Of a DNA stretch of 44,580 nt, positions 1 to 41,891 are shown piece by piece. Both the position numbers and the translations under genes were made by a program. The notes under the pieces were generated by a model, which saw only the letters and a program-made list of their open reading frames with translations, did not search any database and was not told the DNA's origin. The DNA lies in IMG/VR virus record IMGVR_UViG_2534682161_000019; one strand, given 5' to 3'. This DNA comes from a virus. Its lineage: Duplodnaviria > Heunggongvirae > Uroviricota > Caudoviricetes. The first letter of the stretch is position 1; every line of letters starts with the position of its first letter.

Positions 1-390
1 ATGCGTTACCTTTCATCGGTGAAAATAAGCGTACAACAACTATTTATGCTGGCATTAGCGATGATAGTTATTGGTTCTTTCGGAGTGTGTTTATTTGTTT
101 ACTATATTTTTATCGATAATTGATATTTTTTTTGGGTATTAAAACAGAGTGGCGCAAACGAAAATATAAATTCGCTATAAAGACGGGGGTGAGTATTAAA
201 AATAATAACTACTAAGTTAAAATCTTTAAAAGTGTTAAAAACATCACATTTAATTATGTTGGGTACTGGAGAATAACCCGTCGTTTTGTTAAAAATAATT
301 TCGCATGATGAATCCCCCTGTGCGGAGGGGCAATCAGCAAGCAGGAATATGGATAATCGCGGATTCAGGTGCTGATACTGAACTCACCGG

Positions 391-810
391 GTGACACCCG
401 GCGCCATGCAGATGATGAAAGTGATGAGTATACCTGCCCCTCTCCGGAGGGGCTTTTTTATAGGCGAACGGATTTCAACCACAATTTATGAGGCTGCGCA
501 ACTGCGTGGCCTTTTTCGTTTTGCGGGCTGCGGTTCCCCTCTTTTGATTCTCCGTGTAACCGGAGATATTGCGAATACGTATGTGCTTAACGGTAACAGT
601 GTGTATATACCTGCCCAGGTATTTACCATGAATCTGGTGATGCTGGGTAGTGCTGAACACCTGTACTTTAACGGTAACGAGCAAACACCAGTTTTCTCTG
701 CGATCCTTTCGAGGATACAGACAGTGTCTGGAGCGGCAGAAATCCGGGGTATGGTGACGACAGTTACAGACCAGTCTGCATCGCAATCTGGATCAAAGTA
801 TTCAGGCTGA
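391..810 (+). CDS. hypothetical protein, probably a remnant gene of a degraded neighbouring prophage
   Basis: 139-aa ORF in the six-frame track; no motif I recognise; lies just upstream of a truncated lom-like fragment. Confidence 0.25.
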   Translation: MTPGAMQMMKVMSIPAPLRRGFFIGERISTTIYEAAQLRGLFRFAGCGSPLLILRVTGDIANTYVLNGNSVYIPAQVFTMNLVMLGSAEHLYFNGNEQTPVFSAILSRIQTVSGAAEIRGMVTTVTDQSASQSGSKYSG

Positions 811-2875: not shown

Positions 2876-5359
2876 TTAAAAATCAGCCTGACTCGGGATC
2901 AGTTTTTGTATTGTAGCTGTAACGTATTTTGCCTGGTGACGGGCGTCATCCAGTGCATTGTGGTGCACGCCTTCGAATGGAATAACGGTTCTGGCATCAA
3001 AGTCGATTGTTTTTCCCAGCTCAACGATTGTGCGTACATCGCGATCGTTGTGGTAGCGCCACGGGCAGGGGATGTCCAGACGTTCGTATGAGGTGCGCAA
3101 AATTGCGTTATCGAAAGTTGCACCATTACCCCATACCTGAACGAATTTTTCATCTGAGTATTCGTTGATGAACTCCCGAAACCGCGAAAGGGCATCCTTC
3201 AGTTTTACCTGGTCTGTTAAAATGGCAGCTCTGGCTTCACTGGACTGCTTCAGCCACCATTCGATGGTTCCACCGTCAGGAACAGCCCCTGTATTCATTG
3301 CGTCAGTCAGACTGATAACGATATAAAATACTGGCCCGATTTCCCCTGTTTGTGGGTCGAAGAAAACCGCACCAATAACCACGATGGGCGCATTGGTGTT
3401 GGTTCCCATTGTTTCAAGGTCGATCATCAGGTGGTACCACACTCTGCTGGTGGATGTGATAACGTGATGACCGTTCACCGCAATTAAGGGATCTGCCGTC
3501 TCGCCAGTTTCATTATCGCTGGCGTGGTCCTGAGCGCTGCCAGCATTCTCCTTGTGTGGATGTTCAGCGCCTTCCATTTCCTCCGGATCATTTTCCTGAA
3601 CTTCAACCTGATTCTCTTCATCGAATGTTTCCTGGTATGTTGCGTCGCCCATCACCGCACCACAATCAGGGCAGTTGCCGCCGCCGGTCTGACCGCAGGC
3701 GGTGCAGACTTTTTCCGCTTCCTGTTGCGCTACTGGCTCAGGTTGTTTCGTTTCTGGCTCGTTTTGTAACGCATTTGGGCTGTTTTGTTCCGCGTTCTGG
3801 TCGTTCTGTTCCGTTTCTTGCTGGTTCTGATTCACAGAATCGCGGGTTTCAATCCCCTTCACCCATTTCGGATCATTCGGGTCGCTAATCCCTGCAACAA
3901 ATTCACTACGTGATACAGCAAGCAACTTATCGGCGTCAGGCTGGCTGATATTGGCTGCCTGCATAATTTTGTTTACTTCGTCAGCGGTAACTTTTACCGG
4001 CTCCGGTTGTGCGATCGTGTCAGATGCACCAGTATTTTGTTGTGAACCTGAGTATGTACCGTTTTTGCGGGCAAAATATTCTTCTTTCGTGATTTCAGTA
4101 GCCCCTGCAGCCAGCGCCTTATTCAGACCAGAAAGTTTGTTTGCACGACCGTATTTTTCGCCATCCTTGTCGGTGAAGAGGAAGTAGAACGGCCCCTCAC
4201 GCTCTACAGATGATTCGACTTCCACTTTGCATTCGGTTTTTTCGTTGTCGTGAATTGCCGTTTCCACTGCGTCAGTTTCTGGTACTGGCGACGAGAGAGT
4301 ATTAGCTGTGCCCTGATTTGTTCCTTCGTCATCTTCAAACACGCCCTTTGTAGTCAGGTATTCAGTGATGTATTTGTTCAGTGCCACGGGATCTTTGTGA
4401 ATGTCGATCGGGCGTTCACGGACAAGGCCAAAAATAGTCTGGCGGCTGTAGCGAAGCGCATCAGGTTGTTTGCGCATTGATGCGGAGATGCGCTTCCAGT
4501 CTTCGCGATCTCTGGCGATAACTTCATTTTTAGCCCAGCGAAGGATGCTGCCGTCAATGTTTCCGGCATCCGCATCACCAGGCCAGAGATAGTAGGCCAG
4601 CTCCCTGTCCAGGGTTTTCCATGTCTGCTTGTATTCGCGATGAATGGCGGCAGTTACAGGAGGGATTTTTTCTGCTGGGTTTTCAGTGTGCTGTCGGTTG
4701 GCTTTGGCGCGGGCAAGATCAACAACAGACGTGTATTTTCCAGTCTCTTTGCGCTCTGCGTCCTGCCGTTTTTTCCAGTTACGTAATTCAACCTGAATTT
4801 CGGGCCATTTGGTACCCGGCTTACATTTGTGTTTAACCCATCCGATAGCGAACAGTTTGCGTTCCGGATACATAGCGTTAATTTCAGGCGTTTTCATCAG
4901 TGCTTCAACGATATGCCCGTCAAAGGTAGCCACGTCTTCTTGCAGTAATTCCTGCGCGTCAATCGCCATATCAACGGTGATGTTTTCACATGTACCGAAC
5001 TTAACCAGGACCGCGTTCTGTACTTCAAGGGACAGCTTGTCAAAATTGACGTTAATAGGATCGGATTCTGGTTCGACCGGAATAAAGGAAGCGGATTCCT
5101 CATCCCAGTGGTTTTCCTGCATATATTCGGTATCCCAGGAGTCGATAGCAGGGCGGGGCATGCCGGGTTTATCTTCGCAGACAAGAAATTTATAAGCGCA
5201 GTCCTGAGCAGCAGGATATTGCTCCAGGAATTGCCAGGTAAATTTGGCACGGGCGCGGCGTTCATCACCGGCTTCAATGGCAGTGGCTACAGCAACTGCG
5301 CCCTCTTCTTTTATTGCCTGTTCGTCCGGAATGGCGGCGCAAATAAAGACTTTACTCAT
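2876..5359 (-). CDS. large early-region protein with C-terminal DnaQ-like (DEDDh) 3-prime-5-prime exonuclease domain (type often annotated exodeoxyribonuclease VIII-like in E. coli prophages)
   Basis: 827 aa; C-terminus carries Exo I (MIDLETMGT), Exo II (WGNGATFDNAIL) and Exo III (HHNALDDARH) motifs; Cys4 ribbon CTACGQTGGGNCPDCG; low-complexity Q/N/E-rich linker. Confidence 0.7.
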   Translation of the reverse strand: MSKVFICAAIPDEQAIKEEGAVAVATAIEAGDERRARAKFTWQFLEQYPAAQDCAYKFLVCEDKPGMPRPAIDSWDTEYMQENHWDEESASFIPVEPESDPINVNFDKLSLEVQNAVLVKFGTCENITVDMAIDAQELLQEDVATFDGHIVEALMKTPEINAMYPERKLFAIGWVKHKCKPGTKWPEIQVELRNWKKRQDAERKETGKYTSVVDLARAKANRQHTENPAEKIPPVTAAIHREYKQTWKTLDRELAYYLWPGDADAGNIDGSILRWAKNEVIARDREDWKRISASMRKQPDALRYSRQTIFGLVRERPIDIHKDPVALNKYITEYLTTKGVFEDDEGTNQGTANTLSSPVPETDAVETAIHDNEKTECKVEVESSVEREGPFYFLFTDKDGEKYGRANKLSGLNKALAAGATEITKEEYFARKNGTYSGSQQNTGASDTIAQPEPVKVTADEVNKIMQAANISQPDADKLLAVSRSEFVAGISDPNDPKWVKGIETRDSVNQNQQETEQNDQNAEQNSPNALQNEPETKQPEPVAQQEAEKVCTACGQTGGGNCPDCGAVMGDATYQETFDEENQVEVQENDPEEMEGAEHPHKENAGSAQDHASDNETGETADPLIAVNGHHVITSTSRVWYHLMIDLETMGTNTNAPIVVIGAVFFDPQTGEIGPVFYIVISLTDAMNTGAVPDGGTIEWWLKQSSEARAAILTDQVKLKDALSRFREFINEYSDEKFVQVWGNGATFDNAILRTSYERLDIPCPWRYHNDRDVRTIVELGKTIDFDARTVIPFEGVHHNALDDARHQAKYVTATIQKLIPSQADF

Positions 5360-5829: not shown

Positions 5830-6406
5830 TATCGCGTCCTCAACAATGAATTTTGTGATGCGGTGCCTGGTGCCTCCAGGTGACGTTAACCAGTTAACAA
5901 TTAACGCCGGATACAGAGAATCCACCCATAACACTGTTTTTGGTTTTAACTGTTCCGCGTGCGCTGAGCCGCATTCACCGCATCACAAAATTCACTTTTA
6001 AAAAAGGGCGGCAGAGCAGTCACGGAGTAAAACTGATACCGCCAAATGTCACCAGAATATTGATAACAGAGGGCGTTGTAGCGGGGTTGTCACTTAAGCG
6101 TATGGTCAACCTGACAACCCGGTGTCCTCAACGGGGAAAGGCGTCCCTCCCACCCCCGCCATACTTACCGCCGCGCCATTTCGCGGGTCGCCACAACCGG
6201 AAGCGCACGGTCGAATTAAATTTAACGACACCGTGCAGTGAGACGAACTTCGCCGTGCGCTTTCGTGTTGTGTGCCTGCTTTTAACCACGTCAGGCGAGG
6301 TGGTTTCCGTCATTCCCCAACGACAGGAAATCTGTATAATCTGGGTATCCCCAACGATCCAAGGAAATCATATGACAGAGCAAAGAGCACAAGCAGGTGA
6401 TGGTGT

Positions 6407-6942: not shown

Positions 6943-7158
6943 TCAGTAGTTTTCAATCACTCGCGAAACGTTTAATGCCGCGCTTTTTGCCAGAGTGGTA
7001 ATATCCTGCTCCGCTGACACCAGTTCTTTAGAGAGGCGCTCTTTGTAGTCAGCGGCCTGCTTCAGGTCATTAATGGCGCGTATCTTTCCGCACATCCATT
7101 CGTAAATTTCATCCTCGGTATAGTCTGGTGCGATGATGACGGGTTCTCGTTTCTGCAT
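6943..7158 (-). CDS. hypothetical early protein
   Basis: 71-aa ORF in the leftward operon. Confidence 0.4.
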   Translation of the reverse strand: MQKREPVIIAPDYTEDEIYEWMCGKIRAINDLKQAADYKERLSKELVSAEQDITTLAKSAALNVSRVIENY

Positions 7159-14325: not shown

Positions 14326-14523
14326 AATGGCTTTTGTGTGCATGTTAAATAAAGAATACATGGCATCATTTAATGATGTCATGTGTAACGAGCGAAAAGC
14401 CTTTTGAACGGTTTTCATAAGTTATATTGAAAGATAAAATTGCTGCGGGTGCTTGAGGCTATCTGCCTCAGGCATGAACACCAACGGCAGATAGATAAAA
14501 GCCCCACCCGACTATAAATCGAA

Positions 14524-14742
14524 GTGAGGCCCCTATATGCTCGTCACATACAGATTGCCTCTTACGGACCGAAAGGTCAAGGAGAAGCAGGCTATGAAGC
14601 AGCAAAAGGCGATGCTAATCGCCCTGATCGTCATCTGTTTAACCGTCATAGTGACGGCACTGGTAACGAGGAAAGACCTCTGCGAGGTACGAATCCGAAC
14701 CGGCCAGACGGAGGTCGCTGTCTTCACAGCTTACGAACCTGA
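14524..14742 (+). CDS. mok: mok-like overlapping reading frame of the hok toxin locus
   Basis: 72-aa ORF starting upstream of hok and overlapping it in another frame, ending 7 nt before the hok stop. Confidence 0.5.
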   Translation: MRPLYARHIQIASYGPKGQGEAGYEAAKGDANRPDRHLFNRHSDGTGNEERPLRGTNPNRPDGGRCLHSLRT

Positions 14743-16257: not shown

Positions 16258-16629
16258 ATGCGTATAGAGTTTGTTTTGCCTTACCCGCCGACGGTGAACA
16301 CCTACTGGCGACGTCATGGCAGCACATATTTTGTATCAAAAGCCGGTGAGCGTTATCGCCGTGATGTGGCGTTCATTGTTCGCCAGCAGCGGTTGAAATT
16401 AAACCTCTCCGGAAGGCTGGCGATAAAGATTATTGCAGAGCCACCGGATAAGCGCCGTCGTGACCTGGACAATATCCTGAAAGCACTGCTGGATGCGCTG
16501 ACACATGCGGGGCTGCTTATAGACGACGACCAGTTTGATGAAATCAATATTGTGCATGGTCTGCCTGTTTGCGGTGGGCGACTGGGTGTGAATATATTCG
16601 TAATAAGAGGATGTAATGATGTTGCGTGA
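16258..16629 (+). CDS. rusA: RusA-family Holliday junction resolvase
   Basis: 123 aa; [12 protein letters not shown]...[27 protein letters not shown] matches RusA (PPS.N.YYR...RRRDLDN...DAL..AG...DD). Confidence 0.8.
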
Positions 16630-16990
16630 TATTCAGCTGGTTATGGAGCGGTGGGGAGCATGGGCAGCAAGTAATCATGAAGATGTAACATGGTCCTCGA
16701 TAGCTGCTGGTTTTAAAGGATTAATCCCGACTAAAGTGAAATCACGTCCTCAGTGTTCTGATGATGACGCCATGATAATTTGTGGCTGTATGGCACGATT
16801 AAACAAGAATAATCAGTATTTGCACGATTTGTTGGTGGATTATTACGTAGGTGGAATGACATTTATGGCTCTTGCACGTAAGCATAGATGTTCTGATGGG
16901 CTTATTGGTAAAAGACTTTATAAAGCTGAAGGTATTATTGAAGGAATGCTTATGGCTCTGAATGTCCGGTTAGATATGGATATGCGGTAG
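16616..16990 (+). CDS. Q: late-gene antiterminator Q (phage 82/21-type, Quu-like)
   Basis: 124 aa; [18 protein letters not shown]...[14 protein letters not shown]...LLVDYYV... resembles E. coli prophage Quu antiterminators; immediately upstream of the late region. Confidence 0.7.
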
Positions 16991-17137
16991 GGATATATAG
17001 TGACGAGGGTTATGTTTTCCGTGTTTATAATTAATATGTTTATTTTTTGATGGTCATGAATTTTATGGAAGGTAAACAAAATGTTGCCAGGTGAATTGAA
17101 AATATTGATAATCAATCATCATCATTAAATAAAAGGA

Positions 17138-17961
17138 GTGTTTATGTGGATTGTGTTAGCACTGTCACTGTCAACTCTCAGTTGGCATAAGGTAGTGGCT
17201 TTTTCATTGTTGACGGTGTCTGTTGTCCTGGCTGTGCTTAATGATATTATTGATTGGCCGGTGTTGTTTTTTGTTGCTACAATCGTTTTTTTTATTATTT
17301 TGAAGTTCAACTGGAAATATAACGCCTGGGCTAAATCCATATATGAAGCTGGCATAGTTTTATCAGCCATAGCATTATCTTTCCATTTATGGCCAGGGTT
17401 TCACAATCCTGTAGTGCTAAAGTCTGTCACTGTCGGACCTCAAAGCACTCCCTATACAATGTATTTTAATTTTGATAAAGCGCTGGTGCCATTTTTGTTA
17501 GTCCTGTGTACAGCTTCTTTGTTTAAAAAAGAAGTGAAATCAGAAGTGTCTTTGTGGAAATGGGGGGCTCTGTTGCTCTCTGTTCCTCTTATACTGTTTT
17601 TGGCTGTTTTTTTGGTGGGTTAAAGCCAGAGATTCATTTTCCAGAGTGGTTGCCAGAGTTTATATTGGCTAATTTGTTTTTTGTGTCTCTGGCAGAGGAG
17701 TCATTATTTAGAGGGTATATTCAATCACGGCTATCAGAAGTGACGTCTCCATTGGTTGCGTTAATTGTGGCGTCTTTGTTGTTTGGTTTTTATCACTATT
17801 CAGGTGGTGCTTTACTTGTATTATTTGCCACGTTATCTGGTGTTGTGTATGGATTGTCATGGATGTGGAGTGGGTGCTTGTGGGTGGCAACCCTTTTCCA
17901 TTTTGGTCTGAATCTGTGTCACTTGTTATTCTTTACCTATCCATTCTTAAAACATAATTGA
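17138..17961 (+). CDS. CPBP-family intramembrane metalloprotease (CAAX protease/Abi domain), disrupted by a frameshift in a T7 run
   Basis: ORFs 17138-17623 and 17554-17961 overlap in different frames; second part carries CPBP motifs EESLFRGY, FGFYHY, HFGLN; adding one T to the T7 run at 17607-17613 restores a single ~275-aa multi-TM protein; AT-rich. Confidence 0.65.
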
Positions 17962-18102
17962 TTTTTTTCTATGGCTTTAAATTTATAACACTGAAAAATA
18001 GCAGTATGTGACATTTGCATGAAAAATATGCACGGCAAAGCATTTACGTACGTAAAAAATCATGTATGCTTTTAAGAGTGGTTATTTCACCGCATAGCCT
18101 GA

Positions 18103-18126
18103 ACCCGCCTCTGAGCGGGTTTTTTG
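18103..18126 (+). terminator. rho-independent terminator after the CPBP gene
   Basis: ACCCGC-CTCTGA-GCGGGT hairpin followed by TTTTTTG. Confidence 0.55.
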
Positions 18127-18248
18127 TGCCCGCAAAGTAGCGCAGTGCGTTAAATGTGCTGGTAGTTATTAATACTGGTCTTTCTGCTTGCTGGCTTTTT
18201 AGACAAGAGTTATTGGTATGTCACGTTAACCAGAAAAGGGAAAAAGAC

Positions 18249-18446
18249 ATGCTAAAACAGCAGGATATGACCGAAACCGCCAGAGTGGTGTTTAATGAAT
18301 TAAGCGTCACCGAACCGGCGACCGTCGGGGAGATTGCGCAGAATACTTACCTTTCACGCGAGCGCTGCCAGTTAATACTGACTCAGCTTGTTATGGCGGG
18401 TCTGGCAGATTATCAGTTCGGTTGTTACAGACGCCTTCCGCAGTGA
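18249..18446 (+). CDS. hypothetical small winged-helix-like protein upstream of the methyltransferase
   Basis: 65 aa from the ATG at 18249 (AAGGGA RBS); ...VGEIAQNTYLSRERCQLILTQLVMAGL... resembles a DNA-binding wHTH. Confidence 0.45.
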   Translation: MLKQQDMTETARVVFNELSVTEPATVGEIAQNTYLSRERCQLILTQLVMAGLADYQFGCYRRLPQ

Positions 18447-18596
18447 AGGCTTTTTAATTTGTGGTAATGGGCGGCTGGTGGGTGTTAGCGGCACCTGCCA
18501 GCCATCTGCTCATGCGTTGGGGTCACAAGCAAACCTCAGGCCCATCTGCTTTGCGCAAAAGCGGTATGAGCCTATCAGAGAAGTGCTTATTGATCT

Positions 18597-19146
18597 ATGG
18601 CTAATACTGTAAAAATATCCAGCTGCGAGTTAATCAACGCTGATTTCCTGGAATTTATCCAGACCTTACCGGAAAACTCTGTCGATCTGATAGTCACAGA
18701 CCCGCCATACTTTAAAGTGAAGCCCGAGGGCTGGGATAACCAGTGGAAGGGCGACGATGATTACCTGAAATGGCTGGATCAGTGTCTGGCGCAGTTCTGG
18801 TGGGTATTAAAACCCGCCGGAAGTCTTTACCTGTTCTGTGGTCATCGCCTGGCATCTGATATCGAAATCATGATGCGTGAGCGCTTTAATGTGCTGAACC
18901 ACATTATCTGGGCGAAGCCGTCCGGGCGCTGGAACGGGTGCAACAAGGAAAGCCTGCGGGCGTATTTCCCGGCAACAGAGCGCATTCTGTTTGCGTCCGG
19001 GAGATTTGGTTGCCGACTTTTTCATGGGGTCAGGCTCCATAATAAAAGCAGCGCTGGCACTTGGGGGCATGGCGTTAAGCGTTGAACTTGAGTCTGAACG
19101 TTTTGAGCATACTGCGGGTGAAATAGTTACGTTGGCAGATAATTAA
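18597..19146 (+). CDS. DNA methyltransferase (N6-adenine/N4-cytosine type, DPPY motif), apparently frameshifted or internally deleted
   Basis: N-terminal frame contains TDPPYF; the SAM-binding motif (PGDLVADFFMGSGS...ALALGG...) is in a different frame ending at 19146; the combined length is short for this family. Confidence 0.55.
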
Positions 19147-19260
19147 ATCACTGCACAATAAGCTAATGAATTGATGTTAACTTCCCGTATTATTGGGCTA
19201 CTTCGAGAGAAAGGTGCATTACATTTCAGATGTATTTCATCTCACATCCGAGGAAGCAAT

Positions 19261-19336
<76 letters not shown>

Positions 19337-19339
19337 TAT

Positions 19340-19414
<75 letters not shown>

Positions 19415-19546
19415 ACATTTGATAGAGGCGTATTGCAGCACTGGCGTATTTTTATTACGTGAGGACAGATTGTTTTTTTAGGAACTCTCAGTTTTCGGGC
19501 TATGTTTTGAGGCCAGGTTAGCCTCAGTGCTGATTTTTTACAATAC

Positions 19547-19615
19547 CGGAATGGTGCATTATTGGTTGGGTTACGTAGTGAGCCCTATGGCAGGTACCGG
19601 TGATGCACCATTCCG
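19547..19615. other. long imperfect hairpin (13-bp stem, ~43-nt loop) downstream of the tRNAs
   Basis: CGGAATGGTGCAT (19547-19559) pairs with ATGCACCATTCCG (19603-19615). Confidence 0.4.
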
Positions 19616-19694
19616 ATGTTGTAAACATCACTTAGAGTAAGTTATAGAACAATTTGCTACTAAGTAAAACCTGAAACCTGGGAATACATCTTTA

Positions 19695-19718
19695 CCGCCA
19701 CACTTGGCGGTTTTTTTT
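19695..19718 (+). terminator. rho-independent terminator (possible tR-prime-like late terminator)
   Basis: CCGCCA-CACT-TGGCGG hairpin followed by TTTTTTTT. Confidence 0.6.
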
Positions 19719-19816
19719 ATTCTGTTTTTTCATGGCTCGCTACGGCGGCCTTTTTCATGTATACCCTGGCGGTTATTATGATGGCTTGTTTATTTGTTCA
19801 TAAGAGGATTGATACA

Positions 19817-20299
19817 GTGGTCACTTATGCTGATATCAGGGCAAAACGGGCCGAAATACTGAAAGCTAAGCAGGAATACATTCAGCGGTTGCGGGATACA
19901 GCCACAAGGCTGGTCAATGCCTATGAGTCTTCACTGGCGTTGCCGGAACTGCAATGGCGAGACATTGAGGGTGAGTTACATCCTTACGTCTATATTTGCT
20001 TCAATGGCTTCAGTGTCCGACCGGAGGATTTGCAGGTAGACCTTAGGGACGGAGTTGCGTTTAAATTATACACAGTTGTTGATGACAATCCCCGCCAGTC
20101 TGCAAGTATGGAAGTTGGTGTAAAGATTGTGCTGCTTGATGGCGATAACCTGACGATTTCAGTTAATGGTTATGGGGACAGAACATTTTCGCACGTAGAT
20201 ACCGATGCAAAAATTAACGAGGTATGCGAGTTCATCAAAGACAGTATTTTAATGTCGATGAATGATGTGAATTTGGCAAAGCATCTCTGCCGAAGATAG
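19817..20299 (+). CDS. hypothetical protein (moron at the position stx occupies in Stx phages)
   Basis: ORF track 19757-20299; GTG at 19817 lies 9 nt after an AAGAGG RBS; no recognised motif. Confidence 0.4.
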   Translation: MVTYADIRAKRAEILKAKQEYIQRLRDTATRLVNAYESSLALPELQWRDIEGELHPYVYICFNGFSVRPEDLQVDLRDGVAFKLYTVVDDNPRQSASMEVGVKIVLLDGDNLTISVNGYGDRTFSHVDTDAKINEVCEFIKDSILMSMNDVNLAKHLCRR

Positions 20300-20509
20300 A
20301 AGGCAGGAGTCGTAAAAAGGAATCGTTCGAAAATCTCAGAATCACCAGGCTGCGCATTTGCGTGGCCTTTTTTGTATCCGCGCCACGCCCGGCGCATATC
20401 AAAAACCACAGAGCCTTTCAGGGGTGAGCTTACGGGATGGTCAGTGTGACTTTCTCTGTGGGCTGGTCACCCCCGGGCGCAGGCTCACCCACTAAAAGGA
20501 AAAGTCACG

Positions 20510-20935
20510 ATGTTTGGTATTTTCAAAAAGAAAACACGCAAGGCCATTACCGAAGTGAAGAAGATGGAGAACCGCGACGCAGTGGAGGCGACCGTCTGGG
20601 GTGCGTATTCCATTGCATACGCTGACGACACCTGTGACTCGAAAGAAATCGCGGTACTGGAGAAAACCATTGCAGCACTTCCTGCCTTTGCGCCGTTCTC
20701 CGGTGAGATTGCACAAATGAGTGCAAATATCCGCGCCCGTTATGAAGCGTCGCCGCGCTCTGCCAATGCTGAAGCCCTTCGCCAGCTGGCTGATGTCGCC
20801 GGTACTGATGACGCAGTGAATGTGCTGTGCCTGTGTCTGGATATTGCAGACCAGGATGGCATTGGGCCGGAGGAAGAAGTACAGCTCAAGAAAATTGCTC
20901 AGGCGCTTCAGTTACCGCTGGAGCAGTACCTGTGA
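20510..20935 (+). CDS. TerB-like (tellurite-resistance TerB domain) protein
   Basis: 141 aa; layout ...AYSIAYADDTCDSKEIAVLE... and ...DIADQDGIGPEEEVQLKKIAQALQL... resembles the two TerB repeat units (ADG..S.EE / SDG.FDDDEK...IA..LG). Confidence 0.5.
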   Translation: MFGIFKKKTRKAITEVKKMENRDAVEATVWGAYSIAYADDTCDSKEIAVLEKTIAALPAFAPFSGEIAQMSANIRARYEASPRSANAEALRQLADVAGTDDAVNVLCLCLDIADQDGIGPEEEVQLKKIAQALQLPLEQYL

Positions 20936-21084: not shown

Positions 21085-21195
21085 CACCACGCAAAAGGCA
21101 TCTGCGGGTGCCTTTGATTGGGTGTTGTTTTTACGGGCCGCTGGTGGCCTTTTTTGTTTCCATTATACAACGCCCGCATCTGCGAGGTGGGGGTT

Positions 21196-21411
21196 ATGAA
21201 ATCCATGGACAAAATTTCAACGGGCATTGCCTATGGCACCTCCGCAGGCAGTGCTGGCTACTGGTTTTTACAGTGGCTTGATCAGGTCAGTCCGTCACAG
21301 TGGGCTGCGATTGGTGTATTAGGGAGTCTGGTTCTGGGCTTCCTGACTTATCTGACAAATCTGTACTTCAAAATAAGAGAAGACAGAAGAAAGGCTGCGA
21401 GAGGTGAATAA
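21196..21411 (+). CDS. S: pinholin S21-type holin with dual-start motif (antiholin/holin)
   Basis: 71 aa [71 protein letters not shown]; matches phage 21 S21 as I recall it; Met1 and Met4 give the two starts. Confidence 0.85.
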
Positions 21412-21908
21412 TGCCTCCATCATTACGAAAAGCCGTTGCTGCTGCTATTGGTGGCGGGGCTATTGCTATAGCATCTGTGTTAATCACTGGTCCAGGTGGT
21501 AACGATGGTCTGGAAGGTGTCAGTTACATACCATACAAAGATATTGTTGGTGTATGGACTGTATGCCACGGACACACCGGAAAAGACATCATGCTCGGTA
21601 AAACGTATACCGAAGCAGAATGCAAAGCCCTCCTGAATAAAGACCTTTCCACGGTCGCCAGACAAATTACCCCGTACATCAAAGTCGATATACCAGAAAC
21701 AACGCGCGGCGCTCTTTACTCATTCGTCTATAACGTGGGTGCTGGAAATTTCAGAACATCGACTCTTCTTCGCAAAATAAACCAGGGTGATATCAAAGGC
21801 GCATGTGATCAGCTACGGCGCTGGACATACGCTGGCGGTAAGCAATGGAAAGGGCTGATGACCCGTCGTGATATTGAGCGTGAAGTCTGTTTGTGGGGGC
21901 AGCAATGA
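21411..21908 (+). CDS. R: SAR endolysin (phage 21 R-type lysozyme, T4-lysozyme fold)
   Basis: 165 aa; N-terminal signal-anchor-release domain ([23 protein letters not shown]) then catalytic ...[26 protein letters not shown]... Confidence 0.85.
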
Positions 21909-22372
21909 GCAGAGTAACCGCGATTATCTCCGCTCTGATTATCTGCATCGTCGTCTGTCTGTCGTGGGCGGTCAATCATTACCGTGATAACGCCATCGCC
22001 TACAAAGAACAGCGTGATAAAAAAGTCAGTGAGCTGAAGCAGGCGACTGCCACCATCGCTGACATGCAGCAGCGTCAGCGTGATGTTGCTGCGCTCGATG
22101 CAAAGTACTCGAGAGAATTAGCCAATGCGCAAGCTGAAAATGAAACTCTGCGTGCTGATGTTACCGCTGGTCGTAAGCGCCTGCGGATCAACGCCACCTG
22201 TCCAGGCTCCGTGCGTGAAGCCACCGCCACCGCCCGCGTGGGCAATGATGCCAGCGTCGAACTCTCTCCAGTTGCTGGACGAAACGTTCTCGGTATCAGA
22301 GACGGAATCATCAGCGACCAGGCAGCATTGAGAACGCTTCAGGAATATATCCGTACTCAGTGCCTGAAATAG
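21905..22372 (+). CDS. Rz: i-spanin Rz
   Basis: N-terminal TM helix then coiled-coil-rich periplasmic domain; ATG at 21905 preceded by a GGGGG RBS (track begins at the upstream GTG 21893). Confidence 0.8.
22125..22331 (+). CDS. Rz1: o-spanin Rz1 (lipoprotein embedded in the +1 frame of Rz)
   Basis: [22 protein letters not shown]... lipobox LVVSAC; proline-rich mature region (PPPPPAW); fully nested in Rz. Confidence 0.8.
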
Positions 22373-40400: not shown

Positions 40401-41171
40401 TATATTGCGGGTATCGGTGCCGGTATTGAGAACACCCCTGACGGCATGCAGAGCCAGGTGCTGCTGGCGGCAGACAGGATTGCGATGATTAATCCTGCGA
40501 ATGGCAACACAAAGCCGATGTTTGTTGGTCAGGGCGATCAGATATTCATGAACGACGTGTTCCTGAAACGCCTGACGGCTCCCACCATTACCAGCGGCGG
40601 CAATCCGCCGGTATTTTCCCTGACACCGGACGGGCGGCTGACGGCGAAAAATGCCGATATCAGCGGTAACGTGAATGCGAACTCCGGGACGCTCAACAAC
40701 GTCACGATTAACGAGAACTGTCGGGTTCTGGGAAAACTGTCCGCCAACCAGATTGAAGGCGATCTCGTTAAAACAGTGGGCAAAGCTTTCCCCCGGGACT
40801 CCCGTGCACCGGAACGGTGGCCATCAGGGACCATCACCGTCAGGGTTTATGACGATCAGCCGTTTGACCGGCAGATTGTTATTCCGGCGGTGGCATTCAG
40901 CGGCGCTAAACATGAGCGGGAGAATAACGATATTTATTCGTCATGCCGCCTGATAGTACGGAAAAACGGTGCTGAAATTTATAACCGTACCGCGCTGGAT
41001 AATACGCTGATTTACAGTGGCGTTATTGATATGCCAGCTGGTCGCGGCCACATGACGCTGGAGTTTTCGGTGTCATCATGGCTGGTAAATGACTGGTATC
41101 CCACAGCAAGTATCAGCGATTTGCTGGTTGTGGTGATGAAGAAAGCCACCGCAGGCATCAGTATCAGCTGA
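37473..41171 (+). CDS. J: host specificity protein J (central tail fibre/tip attachment, lambda gpJ)
   Basis: 1232 aa; sequence closely matches lambda J throughout as recalled (e.g. ...[58 protein letters not shown]...). Confidence 0.95.
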
Positions 41172-41190
41172 ATTTTATAACCCATATACG

Positions 41191-41214
41191 GGCGCCAGAA
41201 ATGGCGCCTTTTTT
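41191..41214 (+). terminator. rho-independent terminator after J
   Basis: GGCGCC-AGAAAT-GGCGCC hairpin followed by TTTTTT. Confidence 0.6.
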
Positions 41215-41238
41215 ATTGCAGAAAAGCGAGAGGTAATT

Positions 41239-41838
41239 ATGCGTAAATTATGTGCTGTTATTTTGTCCGCAGTAGTCTGGCAGATCGCCGCTGCTACGCC
41301 AGCGAGTGCAGCAGAGCATCAGTCCACACTAAGCGGCGGGTATCTTCAGTCCCATACTGATATGCCCGGAAACGATGACCTGAAGGGCATTAACGTGAAA
41401 TACCGTTATGAATTTACGGACACGCTGGGGCTGGTGACGTCATTCAGCTATGCAGGAGACAAGAATCGCCAGCTGACCCGTTACAGTGATACCCGCTGGC
41501 ATGAAGATTCCGTTCGTAACCGCTGGTTCAGCGTAATGGCGGGGCCGTCTGTGCGCGTGAATGAATGGTTCAGCGCGTATGCGATGGCGGGTGTGGCTTA
41601 CAGCCGTGTGTCGACTTTCTCCGGGGATTATCTCCGCGTAACTGACAATAAGGGGAAAACGCACGATGTGCTGACCGGAAGTGATGACGGTCGCCACAGC
41701 AACACGTCTCTGGCGTGGGGAGCTGGCGTGCAGTTTAACCCGACCGAATCCGTGGCCATTGATATTGCTTATGAAGGCTCCGGCAGTGGCGACTGGCGCA
41801 CTGACGGTTTCATCGTGGGTGTCGGTTATAAATTCTGA
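41239..41838 (+). CDS. lom: Lom outer-membrane protein (Ail/Lom/PagC family), lysogen-expressed moron
   Basis: 199 aa with signal peptide MRKLCAVILSAVVWQIAAATPASA; beta-barrel sequence ...[23 protein letters not shown]...GFIVGVGYKF as in lambda Lom. Confidence 0.9.
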   Translation: MRKLCAVILSAVVWQIAAATPASAAEHQSTLSGGYLQSHTDMPGNDDLKGINVKYRYEFTDTLGLVTSFSYAGDKNRQLTRYSDTRWHEDSVRNRWFSVMAGPSVRVNEWFSAYAMAGVAYSRVSTFSGDYLRVTDNKGKTHDVLTGSDDGRHSNTSLAWGAGVQFNPTESVAIDIAYEGSGSGDWRTDGFIVGVGYKF

Positions 41839-41863
41839 TTAGCCAGGTAACACAGTGTTATGA

Positions 41864-41891
41864 CAGCCCGCCGGTTCAGGCGGGCTTTTTT
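41864..41891 (+). terminator. rho-independent terminator after lom
   Basis: CAGCCCGCC-GGTTCA-GGCGGGCT hairpin followed by TTTTTT. Confidence 0.6.

Follow-up and report, generated by a model that had tools for sequence, protein, structure and literature searches.

The window analysed here, 44,580 nucleotides of caudoviral DNA (IMG/VR record IMGVR_UViG_2534682161_000019), covers the late-regulatory region of a lambdoid prophage and harbors a long hairpin, designated B, between its last tRNA gene and the next cargo gene. Hairpin B is a plus-strand RNA structure under purifying selection. Across mosaic lambdoid prophages it stands in a fixed order, namely tRNA-Gly, a branched spacer termed domain A, B and a conserved intrinsic terminator (T1 in the window), and the unit is also found on IncF plasmids. 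The unit forms an autonomous cassette, and in most lineages it has a promoter to itself. On balance, hairpin B, the short segment C1 that follows it and T1 probably constitute the 3' part of a self-contained noncoding RNA (ncRNA) unit that is made from the tRNA co-transcript, with processing that is predicted from the features described below (coordinates in Table 1).

A preliminary description of the region had recorded an imperfect inverted repeat with 13-bp arms and a loop of about 43 nt. The repeat exists, though with considerably longer arms, of 30 nt each, separated by 29 nt. A repeat search places them at 19537-19566 and 19596-19625, with 83% Watson-Crick complementarity, and the arms given earlier (19547-19559 and 19603-19615) are the middle of this 30-nt stem. 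With G·U pairs allowed, RNAfold pairs 29 of the 30 arm positions, the single mismatch being C19546 against A19616. The stem in the window is therefore 9 + 20 bp around one mismatch, and it offers the nearly continuous double-stranded RNA (dsRNA) of at least 20 bp that is expected of an RNase III hairpin. The 29-nt "loop" of B contains a small apical stem (approximately 19568-19572 with 19581-19585), followed by an unpaired and conserved UGGCAGG (approximately 19588-19594). Folding, which the preliminary description had named as a check on structure, bears the structure out. The minimum free energy (MFE) of 19530-19720 is -71.6 kcal/mol, compared to -42.6 ± 3.9 kcal/mol for shuffled sequences (z = -7.5), and none of 200 dinucleotide shuffles reached the native MFE. 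Rfam, searched with the window and six sister loci at gathering and relaxed thresholds, has no family for domain A or B; the only Rfam matches to the hairpin shape were chance matches to miRNA precursors. Literature searches on the element or its context returned nothing specific to it.

BLAST detected at least part of the 301-nt region in 387 of the 5,426 complete E. coli genomes, with identities mostly of 70-80%, and these genomes include enterotoxigenic (ETEC), Shiga toxin-producing (STEC) and avian pathogenic (APEC) strains. A pattern scan of IMG/VR yielded approximately 100 prophage loci with 44 distinct hairpin variants. A scan of genome contigs with a degenerate pattern of approximately 32 bits gave chance matches at 119 of the 120 loci examined, the true one being in Escherichia ruysiae. 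For 43 distinct variants RNAalifold predicts a stem of 32 pairs, and 98.4% of the 1,376 stem cells (one pair in one variant) are paired. As a control, displacing the 3' partners by 1-3 columns lowers the paired fraction to 33-58%. Changes confined to one side, in each case via G·U, occur in 17 main-stem pairs of these variants, and three pairs have compensatory double changes. With plasmid and other divergent copies added (48 distinct sequences in a model-fitted alignment), 11 of the 32 pairs have compensatory pair types. Purifying selection on B is indicated by the retention of 98% pairing through many substitutions while the flanks diverge to 70-77% identity. The apical stem has been swapped wholesale between lineages (GGAGAU/AUUUCC, AGAGA/UCUCU or GGGYU/AGCCC), and the UGGCAGG on its 3' side is kept.

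The pairing is strongly biased toward one strand. G·U accounts for 21% of the stem cells and A·C for 0.5-0.7%, an excess of roughly 30- to 40-fold. G·U is used in 21 stem columns, and a minus-strand reading pairs only 77.6% of the cells. The plus strand folds better in all 43 variants, with a mean MFE of -40.8 kcal/mol compared to -22.3 kcal/mol for the minus strand. The plus-strand score of a covariance model of hairpin B (R1) is 107 bits, against 49 bits for the minus strand; within the window the model identifies a single copy. Since each G·U would be A·C on the minus strand, B is a plus-strand RNA structure and neither a DNA palindrome nor a gene. It is highly unlikely that B instead acts at the DNA level, as a palindromic recombination or binding site, as the end of a small mobile element, or as a single-stranded DNA (ssDNA) promoter like the Frpo/ssi hairpins that conjugative plasmids carry. 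Such a role would account for the long inverted repeat, for the position of the element at mosaic junctions between modules and for its presence on conjugative plasmids, and hairpins in ssDNA also tolerate strand-specific G·T pairs. The excess of G·U over A·C is, however, unexpected in a duplex-DNA site, and the late regions of prophages have no ssDNA stage. In addition, the plasmid element is located approximately 3.5 kb from IncFII repA, with no transfer genes annotated in the 10-kb stretch (the PLSDB annotation is incomplete), and the orientation of the element always matches that of the tRNAs and the terminator.

A small protein encoded across the hairpin is hardly credible. A coding sequence is annotated here in many E. 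coli genomes, and ATG 19551 opens a frame of 29 amino acids in the window. However, there is no ORF (open reading frame) of at least 40 amino acids on either strand of 19306-19756, and a 4-nt apical indel shortens the frame to 15 amino acids in most relatives. The substitutions in the 5' arm fall, as read from the alignment, on first codon positions of this frame while stem pairing is preserved. Moreover, ATG 19551 lies inside the stem and has no Shine-Dalgarno spacing that would be usable. A protein-coding gene, looked for as an ORF conserved in length and frame with a bias toward synonymous substitutions, was rejected on the ORF length, the frameshifting indel and the first-position variation. 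In many RefSeq genomes PGAP places a "hypothetical protein" across the hairpin and terminator, for example WP_053287136.1 (104 amino acids, 4098-4409 of locus L003). These calls are most likely annotation artefacts, as the frame is not conserved. Of the two proposals in the preliminary description, a structured ncRNA and a lambda-type late terminator, the former is upheld by the strand-specific covariation, the lack of coding potential and the fixed synteny with tRNA-Gly and a conserved terminator.

The position of hairpin B relative to tRNA genes is nearly invariant. tRNA-Gly(UCC) precedes the hairpin in 55 of the 56 representative loci listed, the exception being L078, and apart from this locus the distance from the 3' end of tRNA-Gly to the conserved GAAUGG of the hairpin is 135-142 nt. 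The hairpin itself always lies about 105-140 nt after a phage tRNA-Gly. Loci with a BLAST match to part of the element, covering the hairpin only, keep the same spacing. The tRNA array is Thr-Gly in 63 loci, Met-Lys-Thr-Gly in 11 and of other composition in a few, and Gly is always last. Most sister lineages have strong promoters directly upstream of the tRNA arrays, with A/T-rich tracts before them; examples are TTGCAA-17-TATTAT followed by the GC-rich CCTGCGCCC, and promoters of the TTGACG type. A consensus scan of 19415-19694 found no promoter-like site apart from an artefact inside the tRNAs. The element is thus laid out as a tRNA-operon trailer, located between the last tRNA and the terminator on the same strand and lacking its own promoter.

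Domain A occupies most of the space between tRNA-Gly and B. It is approximately 95-105 nt long and occurs in at least two poorly aligning sequence types, both closed by (A/G)GCACUG ... CAGUGC(U/C) and followed by a U-run. Folded alone, the domain A of the window forms a four-way junction of -33.3 kcal/mol (z = -3.9). RNAalifold predicts the same junction for 21 distinct sequences of the A1 type, and the closing helix is also present in the divergent A2 type. Six pairs of the closing helix are nearly invariant and one varies between A-U, G·U and G-C.

Copies on IncF plasmids separate the unit from its phage surroundings. These plasmids hold the full unit: promoter, a tRNA with a UUU anticodon on a tRNA-Gly scaffold, domain A, B (60 bits), the longer form of the 3' module with its terminator (C2+T, 111 bits), and the terminator that ends it. 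At least 80% of the unit is covered in 76 plasmid records, pVir68 among them, and at least part of the element is present on well over 100 IncF plasmids. The plasmid unit adjoins a gene for a DMT transporter, at the distance from IncFII repA given above, and has no Q or lysis genes near it. Since the unit occurs on plasmids that lack Q and lysis genes, the terminator belongs to the unit and not to the phage late operon. Not all IncF plasmids have the complete set: B, C2 and T are retained in L250, where the tRNA and domain A are absent, and in L251, where both have visibly decayed. The persistence of B, C2 and T in these copies indicates that B travels with the downstream module and not with the tRNA. 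The tRNA of plasmid locus L249 (NZ_CP076263.1, 4816-4889) has a tRNA-Gly scaffold and a U-rich anticodon loop, is called Lys(UUU) by ARAGORN and scores 48.7 bits with the Rfam tRNA model. This apparent anticodon switch could be relevant to anticodon-nuclease defences; a Lys anticodon on a tRNA-Gly scaffold would fit a counter-defence against such nucleases. The copies at L249, L250 and L251 are located in regions dense with isrN, STnc490, UptR and CopA, which suggests that IncF plasmids carry islands of Hfq-type small RNA (sRNA) genes.

It was also considered that the hairpin is purely a cis-acting element for processing or stability of the tRNA operon, serving tRNA maturation as an RNase III site or a barrier to 3' exonucleases, with T1 as a mere operon terminator and without release of a functional RNA. 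The fixed position past tRNA-Gly and the long, near-perfect dsRNA stem are what such an element would require, and the 3' module of the window lacks an sRNA core. The plasmids on which B, C2 and T persist beside an absent or decayed tRNA and domain A speak against this explanation. The nearly invariant unpaired UGGCAGG and invariant stem sequences also suggest more than a generic stem. We regard a purely cis-acting role as rather unlikely.

The terminator that closes the unit was correctly described before: a stem at 19694-19711 (ACCGCCA-CACU-UGGCGGU, seven pairs of which five are G-C) with a 4-nt loop and T8 at 19711-19718. Terminators of this type, ACCGCC-N4-7-GGCGG-T7-9-ATTC, close the unit in all 24 distinct downstream sequence groups and on the IncF plasmids as well. 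Sites that resemble terminators are common enough in this region (9, compared to 4.9 ± 2.0 expected), so it is conservation and not mere presence that sets T1 above chance. The second and weaker hairpin T2 is also present in L002 (4295-4312) and L014. Within 19734-19759 of the window, T2 and its T5 overlap the ATG (19757) at which the ORF without a family (19757-20299) is annotated to start; the GTG at 19818, preceded by AAGAGGA, appears to be a more plausible start for this ORF. A strong minus-strand terminator faces T1 directly downstream in L013 (7793-7817) and at equivalent sites in other C2-type loci, and has no match to an Rfam family. This layout resembles the "convergent sRNA pair" of a moron site (PMC4104026).

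The segment between B and T1 occurs in two forms, C1 of approximately 70 nt in the window and C2 of approximately 160 nt, which has a covarying multi-branch core. In the linker that follows C1 a stretch, ...AUACAUC(C/U)UU(U/A)ACCGCC, is kept in other loci with the short version. Where the 3' arm of B ends, its final bases can fold with those that immediately follow into an alternative hairpin, B', of the form G(A/G)UGUUGUAA...CA(U/C)C. In 19 distinct variants, drawn from 95 loci, the second pair of B' is always preserved, as A-U in 6 and as G-C in 13. This pattern is suggestive of a remodelling of the 5' part after cleavage in B, or of a conformational switch, from few independent covariation events. 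A scan of the window for 10-mer complementarity gave 44 candidate target matches compared to approximately 25 expected; none was convincing, and the two 13-mers that stood out are located in stretches to which no conservation check was applied.

Covariance-model matches place the C2+T of sister copies in the STnc100/PasD lineage, as a divergent member. PasD has been validated by Northern analysis and is dependent on Hfq for stability (PMC8550237), and Zhu et al. propose a shared ancestry of PasD and STnc100 (bioRxiv 10.64898/2026.05.13.724894). The Rfam STnc100 model matches C2+T of a prophage copy weakly (17.5 bits, E = 0.12) and the plasmid copies at 30-36 bits (E = 1e-4 to 3.5e-3). The C2 copies, at 17-36 bits, are all below the Rfam gathering threshold of 47 bits. 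A covariance model built from 33 distinct C2+T sequences (R2, roughly calibrated) in turn matches the window's own STnc100, PasD2 of enteropathogenic E. coli (EPEC) E2348/69 and a further STnc100-like RNA of that strain (Table 1). All three alignments span the full length of the model and have the same branched architecture. The window carries a core-less short version of this 3' module. R2 scores 24.0 bits (E = 0.0024) on 19623-19718 with 97 core positions missing, the score coming mostly from the terminator, and the Rfam STnc100 model (RF02076) has no match at E <= 5 in 16900-20600. A canonical STnc100 (RF02076, 111.7 bits) is encoded elsewhere in the window at 273-465 (+), with no upstream hairpin B or tRNA. 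Two weak R2 matches at 41141-41215 and 41791-41891 (+; 18 bits, E approximately 0.04) are probably driven by terminators.

Immediately 5' of STnc100/PasD there is a segment (TTTGTTAAAA) that can be aligned with the basal 3' arm of B (GTGTTGTAAAA), and this arm aligns with the TGnTAAAA extended -10 that precedes STnc100 and PasD2. An internal promoter in B that would serve the downstream module was considered and rejected; in the B-carrying lineages the -35 is missing and the -10 is disrupted. Because this internal promoter is disrupted, co-transcription from the tRNA promoter is preferred.

It is improbable that the structure is residual, with A and perhaps B being degenerate tRNA genes and C1 a broken STnc100-like sRNA. 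ARAGORN does call A and C2 tRNA-like at relaxed thresholds; for A the calls require 80% thresholds and an "intron", and they are inconsistent. The closing helix of A (8 bp; 7 bp in A2) abuts a 5-bp stem in the way acceptor and T stems abut in tRNA, with non-canonical loops. The window also lacks the C2 core, and its neighbouring genes are pseudogenised. However, ARAGORN with default settings finds nothing, no tRNA model matches even at E <= 5-10 (Rfam tRNA at E <= 5 in 19415-19720), and B keeps its pairing while the flanks diverge. For domain A, "tRNA-like" is a topological remark only.

The second proposal of the preliminary description, that T1 is the equivalent of tR' of lambda, does not hold. 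T1 would then stop a constitutive transcript from pR', as in lambda 6S or StxS, with Q acting at this site and the hairpin lying within the RNA. T1 is indeed an intrinsic terminator on the late strand in the interval from Q to the lysis genes, and a Q-modified polymerase would have to pass it. Yet it is located 2.7 kb past the stop codon of Q, behind cargo genes and two tRNAs, and a separate terminator precedes it at 18101-18126. In the sister loci this AACCCGCC...GCGGGTTTT terminator recurs, flanked by the Q/pR'-like promoter on one side and by a distinct tRNA promoter on the other. The coordinates in L002 are 3459-3487 for the pR'-like site, 3539-3562 for the terminator and 3632-3660 for the tRNA promoter; the homologous terminator of L013 is at 6961-6980. 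A short RNA of the lambda 6S/StxS type would be expected at this place; in Stx phages the tR'-terminated RNA is reported to start immediately 3' of pR' (PMC7547250). T1 does not lie approximately 50-250 nt past pR', and the IncF copies, which lack Q, reveal no dependence on Q or on a late-operon context. A tR' role for T1 is accordingly very improbable; T1 is a second terminator further along the late interval, and the terminator at 18101-18126 is the better tR'-type candidate. The latter was missed by the consensus terminator scan and was found by folding. It forms the end of a weak isrK-like match (18048-18125, 21.9 bits, E = 0.1), and a search immediately 5' of this stretch (18048-18126) revealed no promoter-like site.

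The interpretation preferred here, an ncRNA unit made from the tRNA co-transcript, allows the following course of events to be proposed. In lysogens and in cells with the plasmid, transcription of the unit, in the order promoter, tRNA-Thr, tRNA-Gly, domain A, U-run, hairpin B, 3' module and terminator, would start at the tRNA promoter. The tRNAs, and perhaps domain A, would be processed by RNase P and RNase E. RNase III, as the obvious candidate, or another nuclease would cut at or near the stem of approximately 29 bp. A stable RNA of approximately 180 nt, B-C1-T1 or its 3' part, would be released with its end at 19718, and B' could cap the new 5' end after cleavage. The U8 of the terminator would provide an Hfq-type 3' end, and the RNA may act by base pairing like STnc100/PasD. 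T1, backed by T2, would stop constitutive transcription before the downstream cargo and lysis genes, and a Q-modified RNA polymerase would read through both after induction. A more tentative proposal, and one we consider doubtful, is that A and B are a cassette for RNA punctuation or maturation. The tRNA and the tRNA-shaped spacer would recruit processing enzymes, and the hairpin with its UGGCAGG bulge would direct a second cut or bind a factor. With such a cassette, mobile elements would make an STnc100-type regulatory RNA from a strong stable-RNA promoter; alternatively, the B-RNA would have its own tRNA-linked function.

Several points weigh against this interpretation. The number of double-change pairs in B is unexceptional in a shuffle control, since 165 of 500 shuffles reach it, and the sequences are related, so that phylogeny can inflate covariation statistics. 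In ssDNA, too, hairpins that tolerate G·T could in principle arise. The tRNA promoter of the window's own lineage matches the consensus at only 9 of 12 positions. The 3' module of the window, matched only via linker and terminator, may be what is left of a decayed copy. Cleavage by RNase III, binding of Hfq and any targets of the element are hypothetical. Finally, prophages PP2 and PP5 of E2348/69 have no hairpin B, and the published RIL-seq and Northern data on this strain do not cover the element.

Rfam 15 contains neither the hairpin nor domain A nor their fusion to an STnc100-type module, and the literature searches returned none of them; T1 itself is ordinary. If expressed as predicted, the unit represents an unannotated RNA family of mobile elements. 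It would join three subjects that are commonly treated apart: phage tRNA genes, Hfq-dependent prophage sRNAs of the STnc100/PasD type, and the shielding of lysis genes against constitutive "moron" transcription. It offers a concrete proposed route by which an sRNA is made from a tRNA co-transcript. Genome annotation can also be corrected, since pipelines call hypothetical proteins across the RNA. Moreover, the interval from Q to the lysis genes has at least two successive terminators, of which only the first is tR'-like.

Table 1. Features of the unit and its surroundings. Positions refer to the window unless a locus is named.
Feature	Position	Strand	Remarks
Candidate promoter	19132-19159	+	TTGGCA-16-CACAAT, 9/12, consensus scan; weak, unproven
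tRNA-Thr (UGU)	19261-19336	+	ARAGORN; Rfam tRNA 65.0 bits
tRNA-Gly (UCC)	19340-19414	+	ARAGORN; Rfam tRNA 65.6 bits
Domain A	19436-19532	+	branched four-way-junction spacer; 8-bp closing helix CAGCACUG (19436-19443) / CAGUGCUG (19525-19532)
U-run after domain A	19534-19539	+	
Hairpin B	19537-19625	+	~29-bp G·U-rich stem, apical stem-loop, unpaired UGGCAGG
Alternative hairpin B'	19615-19629	+	GAUGUU-GUA-AACAUC; excludes basal 9 bp of B
C1 hairpin	19630-19665	+	14 bp, one bulge; takes the place of the STnc100-like core of sister loci; poorly conserved across lineages
Linker	19666-19693	+	A/U-rich, mostly unpaired, AAAACCUGAAACCUGGGAAUACAUCUUU; candidate seed or Hfq-contact segment
T1 intrinsic terminator	19694-19718	+	3' end of the unit; -11.3 kcal/mol, z = -5.7
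T2, second, weaker terminator-like hairpin	19734-19750 + T5 (to 19755)	+	GGCUCGC-UACG-GCGGCC; -10.4 kcal/mol, z = -2.5
tR'-like terminator, outside the unit	18101-18126	+	GAACCCGCC-UCUGAG-CGGGUUUUUU (3' side CGGGU6); fold
R2 match: window's own STnc100	293-460		24.1 bits, E = 0.0024
R2 match: PasD2 of EPEC E2348/69	L247 5148-5327		23.9 bits, E = 0.0026
R2 match: further STnc100-like RNA in E2348/69	L248 3188-3355		40.1 bits, E = 1e-6
RusA	16258-16629		Pfam
Q antiterminator, PF06530 type	16616-16990		Pfam
Rce1/CPBP-like cargo gene, split	17138-17961		Pfam
N6/N4 DNA methylase, truncated	18597-19146		Pfam
ORF without family	19757-20299		Pfam
TerB	20510-20935		Pfam
P21-type holin	21118-21411		Pfam
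Lysozyme	21411-21908		Pfam
Rz	21893-22372		Pfam

The genes around the unit were identified by Pfam, and the hairpin and terminator are located within a 340-nt gap between tRNA-Gly and the next ORF. The Rce1/CPBP-like cargo gene consists of two overlapping ORFs, and the methylase gene has a truncation or a frameshift. In E. coli N96, the closest relative, which is 100% identical across the hairpin-terminator region, an IS66 element is located upstream instead. The window also encodes the sok antitoxin RNA of a hok/sok locus (14447-14596, +, 102.9 bits) and the DicF sRNA (6006-6057, -, 77 bits); these matches confirm that the prophage is lambdoid and rich in sRNAs.

Among known systems, the STnc100 (RF02076) and PasD sRNAs of E. 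coli and Salmonella prophages resemble the element in several respects. They are likewise borne by mobile elements and encoded on the sense strand in the "moron" region between Q and the lysis genes. The C2+T of sister loci shares with them a branched core followed by a linker and terminator, and STnc100/PasD2 and C2+T cross-match in both directions. STnc100 and PasD2 differ in having their own promoter-like elements (a -35 TTGACT in PasD2 and the extended -10 in STnc100) and no upstream hairpin or tRNA. The window copy, in contrast, has no branched core and no Rfam STnc100 match, follows B, A and tRNA-Gly, and comes with no promoter of its own that could be recognised.

An sRNA of the 3'ETS-leuZ type is cut from the 3' trailer of a tRNA operon and ends at the operon terminator. 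The element resembles it in position, between the last tRNA of an operon and an intrinsic terminator, and would therefore be set free when the tRNA 3' end is processed, but it is five to six times longer, highly structured and modular, and has no sequence relationship to it. With lambda 6S/tR' and StxS it shares a late-strand intrinsic terminator between Q and the lysis genes; it differs in that T1 is not adjacent to pR' or Q and that the cassette is also found on plasmids lacking Q. DicF and other prophage sRNAs matured by RNase III and RNase E are comparable in being embedded in a longer co-transcript with an adjoining long double-stranded segment. DicF has no similarity to the element in sequence or structure, and processing of the element is predicted.

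The anti-sRNAs AgvB/AsxR and PasA/PasC, convergent sRNA pairs of the moron site, occupy the same neighbourhood (RusA, Q, tRNAs, TerB, holin). Identity with these RNAs was rejected: there is no Rfam match to AgvB or AsxR, the PasA probe is absent even when three mismatches are allowed, and PasA/PasC are on the opposite strand. Finally, the stable RNAs C and D of T4, GOLLD and ROOL are linked to tRNA genes. The element is like them in being a conserved structured ncRNA associated with phage tRNA genes; it is much smaller, has different hosts and a different architecture, and gives no Rfam match to GOLLD or ROOL.

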